From the IMG/VR virus record IMGVR_UViG_3300025000_000078, positions 1 through 64,000 of that record: a stretch of 64,000 nt of DNA. One strand, given 5' to 3'. Positions 10,804-64,000 of the stretch are shown piece after piece. Under the pieces are notes generated by a model. The model was not told the DNA's origin. It made no database searches and saw only the letters and a program-made list of their open reading frames with translations. The stretch is from a virus. The translations under genes were made by a program, and so were the position numbers. The first letter of the stretch is position 1; each line of letters opens with the position of its first letter.

Positions 10804-12851
10804 TTATACAGCTTCTTTAAATTGTTTTTCTTGTGATTTTTCTAATCTGTCACATAATTCAAAGATATTTAATAATTGCCCATTTTCATCTGGTTCAACA
10901 TGTGATAATTGTTTTTCTAATATAGGTAATGATTTATTAAATAATTCATATCTTAATTTTTCATTTGTAAGAAACTCTTTTCTAAACTTTCTAGTATCAA
11001 ATTTAATATCTTTTAAACCTTCAATATATTTATAAGGGTTACGACCAGCAATTAATTCATTATCTTCAGCAAATCTTAATTGAGTTAAAATAGGATCAAA
11101 TCCAGTAGACTGGTCATAAATAAGATTTACAAATTGACCAGCTTTATTAGTTCTAGATTTTAAAAATTCAGCTCTTACACCAAAACCATCAAAACCATGT
11201 TCCTCTTTTTTAAACTTTTCTGAACCTAAAGCAATAAAATTTATTAATAAATTAGCATAATAGATCGATATATTCACATTGGTCGTCAGTCAATGCAGTT
11301 CTCTTATGAACTTCCCTAATTTTCACTAGGATACTAGACTATATCTTCATCCTTAATACAATAATGTATTAAGGAGTTACCCATTTCGTAAAGAACTCTG
11401 AAAAGTTCACCTCACCATTATTGACTTGTGAGTCTACTCCTACTCTACTAAAAGTAGCGTCATCAGATAGTCGTTGAACTTTATTCTAATAATATTAATA
11501 TATTAGAATCTTAGCTGCGGATTACCTAATTTCTTACCTTGTTACCATACCTAAGGCATTACCCTTCGCCACTATAATATTGCTATTATAGTTTGGTAGT
11601 AAGAGATTTAAAGGGCTTCCCCGACAATTAAAGTAGTATTAACATAATATTACTATTATGCCACCCTAAATTTAGGTGCATTCCCACCCGTAATGTTCAC
11701 ACTATTCGTTAGATAGTGCAGTTCTCCTATGAACTTCCCTAGAATTTCCCTAGGATACCAGACTATATCATCATCTCTATATTTTCATATATAGATGCTT
11801 CCTATTTCGATTTAAGGGAATCTCACCCACTCACTTGAGCCCTACTCCTATTGCTTATTTCAAAGCCAAGGGATAGTCGTTGAACCTTTCTCTAATAAAT
11901 TAGAGGCTTGGCTGCGGATCACTCAATCCTAAAACATTATTACTATACCTTAGATAGTTAATCTAAGCCATTAATACATTACTATATTAATTTAGTAGTT
12001 TTAGGCTCTAAGAGATTCCCCGACAATTAAAGAAGTTATTCAACATACATTACTGTATGAGGACCCACAAATCTCGAAGGTATCGACTGGTCCATCTTCA
12101 TATATAATAACTGTGGTTGTGTTTTATTCATTGGAGAAATTTCTATTTTTTGATTAATATGATTTATTGCAATAACATTTATATTATATGCTTTTATAAT
12201 TGGCATCAGTCTCTTATAGAATTGAGCTAATGCTTTAGCAACTCTATTAGCATATGTTCCACCTTCCATTTCATTAGAAGTATCTTTTGAAGCAACAGTT
12301 GGGATTGAGTCAATAATCATAATCGTTGGAACAAAAGCTTTAATCGGTCTATTAAATTCATCGAATAATCCAGTATTATAAGTATAGTCTTTTCTATTAG
12401 CTTCTTTTTCCTGAGCTATTTCAACTATACTATTAAATATATCTTCAATATAATTTTTTTCTTGTTTTAATATATATTTATCATCAAGTTCTTGTTGTGT
12501 CATAGATGTTACATTTTTTATTCTGGTGTACGATAAAACTTGTTCTAAATCAAAATGTTGAACAAATGCATTATCATCAAATCTTCTAACAATATTAGCG
12601 GCAATTTGAATAGCAAAAGTAGTTTTAGCGGTACCAGATTTACCTATGATTGTCATAAAAGTACCACCGACTATACCAATAGAAGAATATGTTGTTATTA
12701 AAGTTTCATCTAAACCTCTAACTTCAACCATATACCCATTCCTATAATCAAATGGTACAAAACCTGTTGGATAACAAATCGATGTTTGTGTTGGATTAAA
12801 TAAACCTTTTTTATCCTTTTCTCTTAATCTTGAAAGCATTTTATTAGCCAT
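10804..12851 (-). CDS. recA: RecA/UvsX-like recombinase; spliced from three exons (12851-12078, 11688-11674, 11265-10804; about 416 aa)
   Basis: Walker A GKSGTAKTT, Walker B IIDSI, IAINHI; splicing gives DQSIP-GGNAP-IYYAN (cf. RecA TTGGNALKFYA). Confidence 0.9.
11266..11673 (-). ncRNA. ORF-less group I intron 2 of recA (408 nt)
   Basis: P1 CACCU/GGGUG; P, Q, R (GTTCAACGACTA) and S (AAGATATAGTCT) elements; terminal G at 11266. Confidence 0.9.
11689..12077 (-). ncRNA. ORF-less group I intron 1 of recA (389 nt)
   Basis: P1 ACCU/GGGU; P, Q, R and S elements; terminal G at 11689. Confidence 0.9.
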
Positions 12852-17950: not shown

Positions 17951-19651
17951 TTATTTTAAAGATTTCTTAACTAACAAACCTTTTGTAACTAGGTCAGACA
18001 AAATTCCCATTGATATTAAGTGAACATCAATTAAATTTAAAGTCACTTTATTTTCAACGTTATTAGTTAAACTATTTAAAGAAACAAAACCTTTTTGTGC
18101 TATTTGTGCATACATTTCATTTTTCATGACCATATCATCTGATCTAGGCGATATATTCACATAGGTCGTTAATCTATGCAGTTCTCTTATGAACTTCCTT
18201 ATCTTTCGATAAGATACTAGACTATATCATTAACCTAATAACTTTCATTAGGTTACTTCCCATTTCGATTTAAGGGATTTTCACCCACTCACTTGAGCCC
18301 TACTCCTATTGTGTATTTTAACACTAGGATAGTCGTTGAACTTTATTCTTATTTTCAATTTTATAATTTTTCGAAATATGATCCCATTTACCATATTTTA
18401 TCCCATCTATTAAACTATAAAAACTATTATTATCTTTTCTTTTTTTATAGCCATAGATATGCATTATTTGCATTTGAGTAAGTCCTTTCTCAAGATATTT
18501 ACAAATATCTTCTACTATCTCTTCCGAATATTTAGCATAATAATTTAAACTACCTTTACAACCAAATCTACTTTTACTATGAATTAAACTAAATTCATTA
18601 TTTTCTTTGGTTGTAACCCATTCAAGATTCTCATAATAATTATTAAATGTGCATGTGTCTTTATGATTTACATTCGTTCTTTTTTGTTCTTTATTATAAC
18701 CATTAACAAATTCCCATGCAACAAGTCTATGGGTTCCAACAATTTTTACTTTTTTAGTTTCACCAATTAAAACTGAGTATAAATATCCTTTTTTATCAGA
18801 ATATGGATTTATTATTTTATTGATGTGTATATCTTTAACTTTACCAAAATTACTTATTAAGTAGCTATTTTTTTTAATAAATGGGTATGTGATAATTCGA
18901 AAAATTTCTTTATCTTTTTTAATAATTATATACATTTATTATCATCCTTTTTAAAATAAATTAAATAAATGTATAATAATATATTAAAAAAAATACTTAA
19001 TTAATAAATAAGAATCTTAGCTGCGGATTACTCAATCTTTTTATTATATAATAAAAAGCTCTAAGAGCTTCCCCGACAATTAAAGAAGTTTTCTATATAT
19101 GTTACCATATATAGGGGCTAAGCTATGTAACCCATAAATTCACGTAATGCATCAATAGCATCAACAGATAATAATGAAAAATTTTCTTGATCGGATTCTC
19201 TAGCATTTTTATCTTCCCCAACAACTTGACCTGTCATTGCAGAACGACTTGAACTTTTCAATGATAAAGTATTTTTTTTACTTAATAGTTGTTGCATTCT
19301 TTTAACATGAACATACCCAACAGGTACTTCATATTTAATAACAATAGGATTTTCTATACTATTATTAACAAAAGGCACTACTACTTTTTCAAATAAAGGT
19401 ATGTCTAAGATTTTAGCTGCTTTTTCTATATTTTCGATAGTTAGATCTCTTTCATAATCAACCATATCTAGAATAAGATATTGTTCATCATCTTTAAAAA
19501 ATTCTTTAAAGAAAATATTAAATTGTATATCACTCATTGGTTGAAATAATTCTTTATATTTTTTAGTATTAATACCTGTTGGGTCTAATTCATTAAATGT
19601 TTCATAGATTACTTTTTCCATTTTTTTTCTCTTATCTTTATTTATAGTCAT
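17951..19651 (-). CDS. rpoB: Second RNAP beta C-terminal fragment (probably virion RNAP); spliced (exons 19651-19130 and 18148-17951, about 239 aa)
   Basis: PVGYVHVKRMQQ...TGQV...ENFSLLSVDAIDALREFMG-PRSDDM resembles VGYMYMLKL...[24 protein letters not shown]; late-type motif upstream at 19686-19697. Confidence 0.8.
18149..19129 (-). mobile_element. Group I intron with HNH ORF
   Basis: P1 GGGU/GCCC; P, Q, R and S elements; terminal G at 18149. Confidence 0.9.
18324..18935 (-). CDS. Intron-encoded HNH homing endonuclease
   Basis: YLISNFGKV, HRLVAWEF, VNHKD...NNYYENLEWVTTKENN; its 3' end reads through the intron R element. Confidence 0.9.
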   Translation of the reverse strand: MYIIIKKDKEIFRIITYPFIKKNSYLISNFGKVKDIHINKIINPYSDKKGYLYSVLIGETKKVKIVGTHRLVAWEFVNGYNKEQKRTNVNHKDTCTFNNYYENLEWVTTKENNEFSLIHSKSRFGCKGSLNYYAKYSEEIVEDICKYLEKGLTQMQIMHIYGYKKRKDNNSFYSLIDGIKYGKWDHISKNYKIENKNKVQRLS

Positions 19652-42234: not shown

Positions 42235-45234
42235 TTATTTTTTTTTATTTAATGCTGATGAAAAATCAAATAAATCTTCTTCTTTATCTTCTTTAATTAC
42301 TTTTCTTTCTACTGCATTTCTTTTACCTTTTTTATCTATATTTAAATCAACACCTTCAAAATCTGTTGATAAACTTTCTTCAGATAATGAATGTTCTAAA
42401 TAGATATCATCAATAAGTCTAATTCTATTACCAACTTCAAATGGATGGTTAAAATAACTTAATTCGTAAGTATCCCTATATCTTATTTTAACTCTTTTAA
42501 ATGTTAAATAATAATTATTAGTATTCTTTTTCTTTTCTATGTTAATGATAATAACAACGTCACTATTTTCAATAACTTCAAAAGCTGAGCCTACATTACC
42601 TCTACCCATGAATCTTGCTAAATCTTCTTTATTAGCCATTAGTGCACTATCTCGTTGGTTCACATAGGTCGTTAATCTATGCAGTTCTCTTAAGAACTTC
42701 CCTAGTTTTCACTAGGATACCAGACTATATCATTATCTCTCGGTATAAGAGATATTTCCCGTTTCGATTTAAGGGATTCTCACCCACTCACTTGAGCCCT
42801 ACTCCTAATGCTTATTTCAAAGCCAAAGGGATAGTCGTTGAACCTTGTTATTAAATATCGTATAAATTACTTATATGTCTCCATGATTTTTTATTTCTTA
42901 TTTTTTTAATTAAATCTATAGTTTTTGGTTTATTTCGTATATCATCATTATGTTTTATTCTATCATATATTTTACCCTGACTTAAACCTTGTTTGTGTAA
43001 TAAACATATCTGATGAACTGTTTCTTCATTATAAACATTTAATACACTATTAATCCCTCTAGGATTCCATAATCCAATTTTTATAGCATGTACATTATTT
43101 TCTGAAGGAGTTACCCATTCAAGATTTTGATAATAATTATTATTTTTAAAACCATCTTTATGATTAACAAATATTTTATATTTAGAATTAGGAAAATCTA
43201 AAAAATGTTTGGCTACTAATTTATGAATTGATTGATTTATAAAAGTAGCTTTATTTCTATATAAAGAAACTTTTAAATAACCATTTGGTCTCTTTTGAGG
43301 TTTTAAAATCTTATTTGATGTTTTAGAATAAACTCTACCATAATTACTTAAAAGATAATCTGGGAAAAGAGGCATCTGTTTCCATTCTTCATTAATAATT
43401 ATTTGTATAAGTAATTTATTCATTTTTATTTTTTCACCCCTTTATTTTATACGATTTTATTTTGAGTTTAAATATTTTTATACGATATTTAATAACCTTG
43501 GCTGCGGATCACTCAATCCTAAACATTATTACCATACCTAAGACATTATTCTTAGCCACTAAAATATTTCTATTCTAGTTTGGTAGCTTAGACTATAAGA
43601 GATTTCCCGCAATTAGAGAAATTTTCATATGATATTTCTACCATATGCCGCATATAATTTACGGCTATTGCGCCAGTTCTATTTAATTGCTTTATTTTCA
43701 TACTATTCGTTAAATAGCACAGTTCTCTTATGAACTTCCCTAAGTTTCCTTAGGATAAAAGACTATATCATTATCTCTTATTTAAAGAGATACTTTCCTT
43801 TTCGATTTAAGGGATTCTCACCCACTCACTTGAGCCCTACTCCTATTGTGTATTTCAACACCTATGGGATAGTCGTTGAACCTTTCTCTAATAGTTTATT
43901 AGAGACTTGGCTGCGGATTACTCAATCTTTTTATTGTATAATAAAAAGCTCTAAGAGCTTCCCCGACAGTTAAAAAAGTTTTTCATTATAAATCACTTTA
44001 TAATGCCACCTATAAATTGATGGGCTGTAATAACAGGTATATCTTTATCAACAGCTAAATTCTTTAATTCATTAGTTACATTTTTTAACTCTTCTTTTTC
44101 ATCTTTAGCTTTTTCATATGGTCTAATTCTTTTAATATAATCTAAAATTAAAGCTATTACTTCTTTACCATCATCAGATAATTCATCTATTATTGTATAT
44201 AAATCAGCAGTTGATATTTCTCTATTAGGATAATATTTAATGATAATGTCAATATCATTATCATCAGATAAAATTAATTCTCCATCTTCTTTTAATTTCT
44301 TTATTACCTGTTTAGCAGTAAAACTTCTAATATCATCTGAAGTTACTGTCATATTAAATAGTCTTTCAACACTCTCCTGGACTGTATTTTCAGCTGTTAC
44401 TAATAATACACAAGGTTTCTTACCAGGTTTTTTAACTTTTATACCTTTATTATATTTCTTTATATCAACTGCTGTTTTTAAAAGAATACCTGATTTAAAA
44501 CCCCCAGGTAAACCTAAATATGTATAAAGACATTTACTCATATATCCAGGAGATAATATATGATTTAATTTTTGTATACCAGTTCTTAATATACGAGCAG
44601 GGTCTTTTAACTCATTGACTATATCAGTAACAACATCTTTAAATACATCTTCTTCCAAACTAAAAGTTTGTGTATTATCAACAGTTGAAACTTTCCTTGT
44701 GTGATTTAATATTTTACTACAAATTTCAGTTAATTCATCATTAACTTCTTGAAAGCTATTATACTCCCCACTGTCAAGACGTTCAATACTTTCGTATAGT
44801 CTATCTTTATAATTAAATAAATAAGCATATTTAAGTCTATCTACAATAGCTTTATTAATATATTTAATTTCTTCATAATTTATCTTCTTATATATGATTA
44901 GAGATTTTATTATTTCTTCTATTTCTTTATTGAAAGTATCAGTTCTACAATAATTAACTATTGCATCTTCATTCTCAAATCCTCTATCTAAACGAGCTTC
45001 TAAAGCTCTTTTAATAAAGTACGTTCTTGATTCTATTTTTTCATTTCCTTCATAAATTCTTTCATCTATAATCTCAAATAAATTCTTTAAATTAGTTAAA
45101 GATTTTCTTGATACTTGTGAAGAATTCTTAAATATAAAACCTATTAACATATTTAACATACTAATATCAAATTTTAGGCTTATTTTCTTTACTTCATTCT
45201 CAACCACCTTAAATAATTTTCTTTTACTTACCAA
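42235..45234 (-). CDS. dnaB: DnaB-like replicative helicase; spliced from three exons (45234-44020, 43689-43661, 42652-42235; about 553 aa)
   Basis: GLPGGFKS, ILDYI; splicing gives IPVITAH-QLNRTGAIAV-DSALM (motif H3 xQLNR); exon 3 has SAFEVIENSD. Confidence 0.9.
42653..43660 (-). mobile_element. Group I intron 2 of dnaB, with HNH ORF
   Basis: P1 GCCGU/GCGGC; P AATTGCGGGAAA; Q, R and S elements; terminal G at 42653. Confidence 0.9.
42851..43423 (-). CDS. Intron-encoded NUMOD4/HNH homing endonuclease
   Basis: EEWK...YLLSNYGRV, HKLVAKHF, VNHKDGFKNNNYYQNLEWVTPSENN. Confidence 0.9.
   Translation of the reverse strand: MNKLLIQIIINEEWKQMPLFPDYLLSNYGRVYSKTSNKILKPQKRPNGYLKVSLYRNKATFINQSIHKLVAKHFLDFPNSKYKIFVNHKDGFKNNNYYQNLEWVTPSENNVHAIKIGLWNPRGINSVLNVYNEETVHQICLLHKQGLSQGKIYDRIKHNDDIRNKPKTIDLIKKIRNKKSWRHISNLYDI
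43690..44019 (-). ncRNA. ORF-less group I intron 1 of dnaB (330 nt)
   Basis: P1 CCAU/GUGG; Q, R and S elements; terminal G at 43690. Confidence 0.9.
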
Positions 45235-63220: not shown

Positions 63221-64000
63221 CTAAAGGTTCACATAGGTCGTTACTCTATGCAGTTCTCTTATGAACTTCCCTAACTCTCATTAGGATACCAGACTATATT
63301 ATCATCTTTATATAAGTTATAAAGAGACACCTATTTCGATTTAAGGGAATTTCACCCACTCACTTGAGCCCTACTCCTGTTGTACATTTCAGTACTTAAA
63401 GGATAGTCGTTGAACTTTTCTTATACTGTTCAGTATTTATATTTGTTTGTAATATGTGACCATCTTTCCTTTCTTTTAATTTTACCAATAAAATTTTTTA
63501 ACAGAATATCTGATTTTTTATCATATTCTGTAAAATTTAATCTAATTAATTTAAGTATTTTATCAACAGATTCATTACACACTAATAATTTACAAATAAA
63601 TTTAACAAGCTTTTCAGTATAAATTGAAGCAAAATGTGCTTCACCCTTATATTGCCAATGTAACCCCATTTTAACTGCATGTCTGATATTATCACCATGA
63701 GTTGACCATTCTAGATTTTTATAATAATTATTTCTTTTAATTCCATTTTTATGATTCACTTCTATTTTGTTTAAATCATCATTTTTTACAAATTCATAAC
63801 AAACCAGTCTATGAATACTAAATTGTCTTTCTTTAATAATTTCTTCCCCTGTTTGTAATGCAAGTCTATAGTATCCAGCTGAACCTAATTGTTGTGATAA
63901 AATATGGTCCCAATTTTTATTTTTTATTCTACCATGATCTGATATTTGATAAAGATTATTTTTAACACCTGGATAGGTAACATCTTTCCATACTTCAGTT
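63221..64000 (-). mobile_element. Group I intron (5' part outside window) in the beta' gene, with HNH ORF
   Basis: R, S and 3' domain nearly identical to the recA, dnaB and beta introns; terminal G at 63221. Confidence 0.88.
63430..63999 (-). CDS. Intron-encoded NUMOD4/HNH endonuclease (5' end outside window)
   Basis: EVWKDVTYPG..YQISDHGRI...IHRLVCYEF...VNHKNGIKRNNYYKNLEWST. Confidence 0.88.
   Translation of the reverse strand, partial: TEVWKDVTYPGVKNNLYQISDHGRIKNKNWDHILSQQLGSAGYYRLALQTGEEIIKERQFSIHRLVCYEFVKNDDLNKIEVNHKNGIKRNNYYKNLEWSTHGDNIRHAVKMGLHWQYKGEAHFASIYTEKLVKFICKLLVCNESVDKILKLIRLNFTEYDKKSDILLKNFIGKIKRKERWSHITNKYKY

Follow-up and report, generated by a model that had tools for sequence, protein, structure and literature searches.

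Exon skipping has been reported for phage Twort, whose group I introns resemble one another (Landthaler and Shub 1999, as recounted in PMC3073962). The recA gene of Bacillus phage 0305phi8-36 carries a group I intron that encodes the endonuclease I-Bth0305I, and the L2 loop of the recombinase is also an insertion site for inteins (PMC3239194). In the phages AR9, MarsHill, Madawaska, and Machias, many essential genes are cut by at least one intron, and intron positions differ among relatives; the recombinase is absent from the categories of intron-disrupted genes given in that study (bioRxiv 10.1101/2020.12.14.422802). Mini-exons located between group I or group II introns are known in mitochondrial genes such as cox1 (PMC10352661). 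A full-text literature search returned no relevant paper on a phage micro-exon between group I introns.

Here, we describe a recombinase gene encoded at positions 1 to 64,000 of an IMG/VR virus record of 74,946 bases, which is estimated to be ~31% complete; this stretch of 64 kb is referred to below as the window. The gene very probably contains two independent ORF-less group I introns of the same family that lie 15 nt apart and would both be removed to give a recombinase of 416 aa. The reconstructed gene consists of the following parts.

12851-12078, minus strand: exon 1, 774 nt, 258 codons, with ATG at 12849-12851
12077-11689, minus strand: intron 1, 389 nt, ORF-less group I, after U12078 and with G11689 as its last base
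11688-11674, minus strand: micro-exon, 15 nt, GGU GGG AAU GCA CCU, encoding GGNAP
11673-11266, minus strand: intron 2, 408 nt, ORF-less group I, after U11674 and with G11266 as its last base
11265-10804, minus strand: exon 3, 462 nt, 153 codons and TAA at 10804-10806

The recombinase gene and its exons

Exon 1 encodes the Walker A motif GKSGTAKT and matches the Pfam family of KaiC/RecA-type ATPases, PF06745, above the cut-off (38.1 bits). The RecA family PF00154 scores 20.7 bits on exon 1 alone, below its cut-off of 27, and many of the full-length homologues carry both PF00154 and the JGI name 'RecA/RadA recombinase'. The Pfam search with the ORF at 11277-10804 alone gave no match. In tblastn searches, exon 1 is 35% identical to the gene annotated as 'UvsX-like recombinase' in phages of the AR9/MarsHill group (E 2e-29 to 2e-35), and both fragments of the window gene match one gene in the Bacillus phages AR9, PBS1, Goe21, and BpSp, and the same gene in Listeria phage LPJP1 and in the Staphylococcus jumbo phages around MarsHill. 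The gene for the beta subunit of the non-virion RNA polymerase lies directly downstream of the recombinase, as in the AR9-group phages; the neighboring ORF (10716-9436, minus strand) matches PF00562. We assign the locus to an uncultured AR9/PBS1/MarsHill-like jumbo phage, as its single gene for a recombinase of the RecA/UvsX family.

The neighboring gene shows a peculiarity of its own. The RNA polymerase beta fragment (PF00562; 9436-10716, minus strand) ends abruptly in ..NSLSVVNRWTGKV followed by a stop, which suggests a further intron just downstream of the recombinase gene. The corresponding RNA polymerase gene contains Rfam group I matches in three related contigs (L010, L013, and L051).

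As the original prediction stated, gene callers represent the recombinase by two fragments only, 12036-12851 and 10804-11277. The frame of exon 1 runs into a stop 13 codons inside intron 1 (12036-12038), and an in-frame stop is found 5 codons inside intron 2 (11656-11658). The splice boundaries were set by the usual rules, with U before the 5' splice site and G as the last base of the intron. For intron 1, no alternative placement yields an identical mRNA; for intron 2, a one-base shift keeps the mRNA but breaks both boundary rules (U and G). Exon 1 ends with CAG TCG ATA CCT (..QSIP), the coding strand of the micro-exon is GGTGGGAATGCACCT, and exon 3 starts with AUC UAU UAU (IYY..). All three exons (774, 15, and 462 nt) are in frame, and their joining gives a product of 416 aa that reads ...DQSIP-GGNAP-IYYANLL... 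across the junctions, which agrees with the earlier claim that removal of both introns restores IP-GGNAP-IYY.

The alignment of this product with intron-less jumbo-phage recombinases, which had been proposed as a check, revealed no gap relative to the proteins of AR9, MarsHill, BpSp, and LPJP1. At the junctions, MKMDQSIP-GGNAP-IYYANLL of the window is aligned with FKQDESIPGGTSCIYLANTL of AR9, and BpSp, MarsHill, and LPJP1 behave likewise. In AR9, PBS1, and Goe21, exactly 15 nt separate the tblastn matches of exon 1 and exon 3. The same spacing of exactly 15 nt was observed in intron-less genes of 13 of the 15 IMG/VR relatives and at 14 JGI metagenome loci, although these 13 and 14 records include copies of one contig, and about two dozen of them are distinct. 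Several intron-less relatives encode GGNAP itself, and GG is nearly invariant among all of them. One such relative, L011, is 80% identical to the window in exon 1 and reads IPGGNAPIYY. With L011 as the query standing in for the spliced window protein, we obtained E-values of 2e-15 against E. coli RecA (3cmu) and 1.4e-4 against T4 UvsX (3io5), and the GGNA of L011 was aligned on that of E. coli RecA, in the segment that follows loop L2. The assignment of GGNAP to the conserved GGNA segment of RecA by L2, as given in the original prediction, is borne out by the alignment. At the level of the predicted protein, the junctions 12078/11688 and 11674/11265 are the sole model that restores colinearity with the intron-less homologues.

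A search of IMG/VR with the 20 nt of the spliced junction gave no match, and no full-length homologue more than 80% identical was present among those listed from a collection of 5.8 billion proteins, the best full-length homologue being 80% identical. Thus, these searches contain no very recent intron-less allele and no record resembling a spliced cDNA.

Ribozymes and their conservation in related genomes

The search with a group I model, Rfam RF00028, gave a divided answer at the gathering score of 50. Intron 2 (match 11314-11684) scores 60.8 bits and exceeds it, whereas intron 1 (match 11738-12080) scores 46.7 bits and falls 3.3 bits short, with E-values of 1.6e-10 in the local search and 9.5e-09 in the search of the whole window. 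The orthologues of intron 1 in the relatives L010 and L051 score 68.3 and 73.4 bits, respectively, and those of intron 2 score 67.9 and 62 bits. The coordinates and the RF00028 matches agree with the two predicted ribozymes at 11689-12077 and 11266-11673 with 15 nt between them. Both introns are called ORF-less because neither strand contains a stop-free stretch of more than 40 aa, the longest being 40 aa in intron 1 and 38 aa in intron 2. The following elements were identified in the two introns.

12063-12066, minus strand: internal guide sequence GGGU of intron 1, which pairs with the exon 1 end ACCU at 12078-12081
11872-11884, minus strand: core of intron 1, UUCAACGACUAUC, containing the P7 5' strand GACUA
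11760-11769, minus strand: GAUAUAGUCU of intron 1, J8/7 and the P7 3' strand, partner of GACUA
11662-11666, minus strand: internal guide sequence GGGUG of intron 2, which pairs with the micro-exon end CACCU at 11674-11678
11466-11478, minus strand: core of intron 2, UUCAACGACUAUC, the P7 5' strand
11336-11345, minus strand: GAUAUAGUCU of intron 2, partner of the P7 5' strand

The P1 helix of each intron has a U.G wobble at the splice site. In intron 1, P1 consists of only four exon-guide pairs (-3.2 kcal/mol), and the P1 duplex of intron 2 has -6.8 kcal/mol. The core motifs UUCAACGACUAUC and GAUAUAGUCU, with the P7 strands GACUA/UAGUC, are invariant across 10 related introns, namely three orthologues of intron 1, three orthologues of intron 2, the dnaB intron of the window, and three distant members of the family. 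RNAalifold applied to these 10 introns gave 39 consensus pairs, 27 of which are changed on both sides, and the covariation spans P2, P3, P6, P8, and P9; for the five closer introns, 30 of 89 pairs have changes on both sides. Five exon/guide combinations occur in the family, each of them self-consistent: ACCU/GGGU, CCCU/GGGG, CACCU/GGGUG, CCAU/GUGG, and CUGCCU/GGGCAG. Both introns contain 60-90 nt inserted between P7 and P3', the place where phage introns of the IA type carry P7.1/P7.2. The Rfam alignment points to an IA-type layout of both introns, with extra hairpins between P7 and P3'.

Both introns are present at the same two sites in L010 and L051, and the micro-exon is identical in all 15 positions in the window and these two relatives. 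The exon 1 protein of L010 is 96% identical to that of the window (DNA ~90%), and that of L051 is 94% identical; a further contig, L077, represents a strain of L010 at 99.4% identity. Directly ahead of the intron 1 site, L010 and L051 encode Ile by ATC and the window by ATA; the exon of these two relatives therefore ends in CCCU, and their intron 1 guide is GGGG instead of GGGU. This is a compensatory change in P1 (C-G versus A-U), and it implies selection for pairing. Between the window and L010, dS is 0.53 in exon 1 and 0.34 in exon 3, and the respective dN/dS ratios are 0.061 and 0.064. Since dN/dS in exon 3 is as low as in exon 1, exon 3 has been translated in frame while both introns persisted. 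Equal protein-level selection on exons 1 and 3 in the presence of the introns is difficult to account for without joining of the exons.

These data bear on whether the gene is spliced at all. A dead or split gene, which would produce a truncated 271-aa ATPase and leave exon 3 untranslated or separate, would be in line with the fragments obtained from gene callers (the exon 1 ORF has 271 aa), with the position of intron 1 under the Rfam cut-off, and with an in-frame GTG found 12 nt upstream of exon 3. However, a Shine-Dalgarno-like motif is not visible ahead of this GTG, the ribozyme cores are intact and covarying, the compensatory change in P1 of intron 1 implies that its pairing is under selection, and exon 3 is under the same constraint as exon 1 (dN/dS of 0.064). 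We consider a dead or split gene extremely improbable.

The origin of the intron pair was assessed by comparison with another intron of the window.

43690-44019, window: dnaB intron, Rfam group I match of 86.6 bits (match 43738-44029)

Intron 1 shares 86% identity with the dnaB intron but 77% with intron 2; pairwise identities of orthologous introns are 88-89%. Some homologues end exactly after ..P and others exactly after ..PGGNAP, which indicates that each of the two sites is occupied singly elsewhere. A local tandem duplication was considered as the origin of the pair and rejected, since intron 1 is closer to the dnaB intron and the sites are singly occupied in other genomes. Most likely, the two introns entered a hot spot separately, each by an insertion of its own.

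Several further observations concern the members of this intron family. Near the dnaB intron, a second group I match of 29.2 bits (Rfam) is located at 42700-42894 on the minus strand of the window, and this region of two matches (42700-44029, minus strand) has an HNH-like ORF at ~42854-43423. In L051 (3775-4495), the P6 hairpins of both neighboring introns are nearly identical, whereas those of the window are different, a pattern suggestive of gene conversion between adjacent intron copies in L051. The introns of L010 appear mosaic with the dnaB intron, and segments look to have been exchanged between intron copies.

Proposed intron removal, its order, and possible exon skipping

We infer splicing and its self-catalysed nature from the sequence. 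In the proposed mechanism, each intron would fold as its own ribozyme, with the guide paired to the end of the preceding exon; guanosine would attack behind the wobble U and thereby release the exon, whose end would in turn attack behind the terminal G of the intron. Ordinary group I splicing would thereby occur twice per transcript and join 774, 15, and 462 nt into the mRNA of the 416-aa protein. The stops lying 13 codons inside intron 1 and 5 codons inside intron 2 would make ribosomes leave unspliced RNA short of the ribozyme cores.

By definition, the micro-exon serves intron 1 as its 3' exon and intron 2 as its 5' exon. The original prediction described it as 3' exon of intron 1 and P1 strand of intron 2, and proposed that this may impose a splicing order. 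The first part stands, as CACCU of the micro-exon pairs with GGGUG of intron 2; the second part does not follow from the pairings. The P1 of intron 2 uses positions 11-15 of the micro-exon, which leaves the 3' splice site of intron 1 untouched. Inspection revealed no convincing P10 pairing for either intron. Since both the overlap and a P10 of intron 1 are absent, base pairing provides no order of removal.

An obligatory order or an interdependence of the two ribozymes could instead be forced by the 15-nt spacing of two real introns. The active sites of the two ribozymes have to be accommodated within 10-15 nt of each other; the micro-exon is able to form a GGUG/CACC hairpin (-5.6 kcal/mol) that would be a competitor of intron 2 P1; and transcription reaches intron 1 before intron 2, making a 5'-to-3' kinetic order plausible. 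However, the GGUG/CACC fold stems from the codons, because intron-less alleles have the same hairpin potential, the bases of intron 2 P1 are clear of the intron 1 3' splice site, and mini-exons of less than about four codons between organellar introns 'occur regularly' (PMC10352661). We consider an obligatory order or interdependence improbable.

The similarity of the two guide regions raises the matter of exon choice. Joining of the 5' site of intron 1 to the 3' site of intron 2 would remove 812 nt and leave an in-frame protein lacking GGNAP, the frame being kept by the 15-nt length of the exon. The two 5' exons share the ending ACCU, and the two guides share GGGU; the guide of intron 2 pairs with the end of exon 1 at -4.4 kcal/mol, compared with -3.2 for the guide of intron 1 itself, and in simple duplex calculations the cross-pairings and the cognate pairings of the window have about the same stability. 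It is therefore chemically plausible that the 15 nt are skipped in frame, and skipping is reported for the similar group I introns of Twort (cited in PMC3073962). As the main or a regulated outcome, however, skipping is very improbable: (i) the five codons are retained in all intron-less relatives, with GG almost invariant, (ii) the micro-exon is kept in 15 of 15 positions in three genomes, (iii) the P1 helices of L010 and L051 differ by one pair (CCCU/GGGG versus CACCU/GGGUG), which lowers cross-recognition, and (iv) formation of P1 presumably favors the cis-proximal site. The strict conservation of the five codons argues that the delta-GGNAP protein would not be the intended product.

An insertion hot spot and comparison with known systems

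Of the 120 homologues listed, 37 end prematurely in the region of the micro-exon. Across the clade, at least six insertion sites are located within ~20 nt, in the codons of DES-PGGNAP-I, and one more site follows KIEINP; the sites tallied from shortened homologues are the points where protein colinearity stops. The insertions are listed below by their position in the protein.

After KIEINP: insertion
After DESL: insertion in L018:4778-6044, with an HNH/NUMOD4 ORF
After P: insertion at site 1, the site of intron 1 of the window
After PG: insertion in L061:1948-2015
After PGG: insertion in L057:3769-4828, with an HNH ORF
After PGGNAP: insertion at site 2, the site of intron 2 of the window
2 nt past PGGNAP: insertion in L042 and L043 (from 4343), ORF-less, and in L040 and L049 (L049:4343-5454), with an ORF

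HNH-type ORFs were found in three of the relatives' introns (L018, L057, and L049). The HNH/NUMOD4 intron after DESL (L018:4740-6080) has an 8-bp P1, GAGUCCCU/GGGGACUC. No 3' splice site ending in G gives a protein colinear with the relatives; a single G-terminal choice is available, and it would place three extra residues, YLH, ahead of PGG. The introns of L042, L043, and L049 had no match in the Rfam E-value search, though their core motifs are visible, and they carry a compensatory P4 variant, CUGG/CAGC instead of CGGG/CCGC. As these introns went unreported, intron counts based on Rfam alone are too low in these phages.

An independent pair of twin introns was observed at 1088-1546 of L063 (JGI contig Ga0079226_10145197), whose recombinase is 49% identical. 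Its first intron occupies site 1, after ..LP, and scores 98 bits in Rfam. The exon between the introns has 17 nt and encodes GGNAP and two bases of Ile; the second intron, within which the contig terminates, starts two bases past site 2.

The window itself encodes four HNH paralogues on the minus strand (248-679, 18339-18908, 42854-43423, and 63403-63996), and a search of the window for a homing endonuclease close to the enzymes at the recA sites of the relatives revealed only paralogues that are 27-36% identical. At least three different HNH introns of the relatives target the same ~20 nt: one follows DESL, another follows PGG, and a third lies 2 nt past GGNAP. It is conceivable, though rather unlikely, that the twin ORF-less introns flanking GGNAP are a selected passive immunity against these HNH endonucleases during co-infection. 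The target would be split into three pieces, and the recombinase gene could not be cleaved by those endonucleases; the twin introns would then be kept by selection despite encoding no endonuclease themselves.

The reconstruction corrects the annotation of this locus to one recombinase of 416 aa in place of two fragments, and automatic gene calling systematically truncates the gene in many uncultured jumbo phages. The locus offers a compact natural substrate, with the splice sites of two group I ribozymes separated by 15 nt, suitable for studies of order, skipping, and interference, and natural controls are at hand in the form of three diverged variants and the independent 17-nt version. The clustering of at least six insertion sites within ~20 nt clearly illustrates how mobile introns and homing endonucleases compete for the DNA that is most conserved in a phage genome.

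The case of twin introns is real, but it stays within the known habit of mobile introns, as comparison with the described systems illustrates. Like Twort, the window has several similar group I introns in one phage protein gene, and their guide sequences are similar, so that exon skipping is possible in principle. Unlike in Twort, the introns reside in another gene of another phage group and only 15 nt apart, and splicing is deduced here from sequence. As in 0305phi8-36, a phage gene of the RecA family is interrupted by group I introns at the DNA-binding loop L2 (PMC3239194). The intron of 0305phi8-36 is single, encodes a Vsr-like homing endonuclease, and lies in the FGNPE part of L2 (PMC3239194), whereas the window has two ORF-less introns that flank GGNAP just after L2.

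In the AR9-like phages, the homologous recombinase gene likewise adjoins the nvRNAP beta gene; in contrast to the window, the recombinase gene of the AR9/MarsHill-type phages is uninterrupted. Finally, the micro-exon resembles the mini-exons of cox1 in being an intron-flanked exon of a few codons that encodes conserved residues and is missed by standard gene callers (PMC10352661). The cox1 mini-exons are organellar and their splicing often depends on proteins, whereas the micro-exon of the window belongs to a bacteriophage gene and lies between ORF-less introns of the apparent phage IA type.
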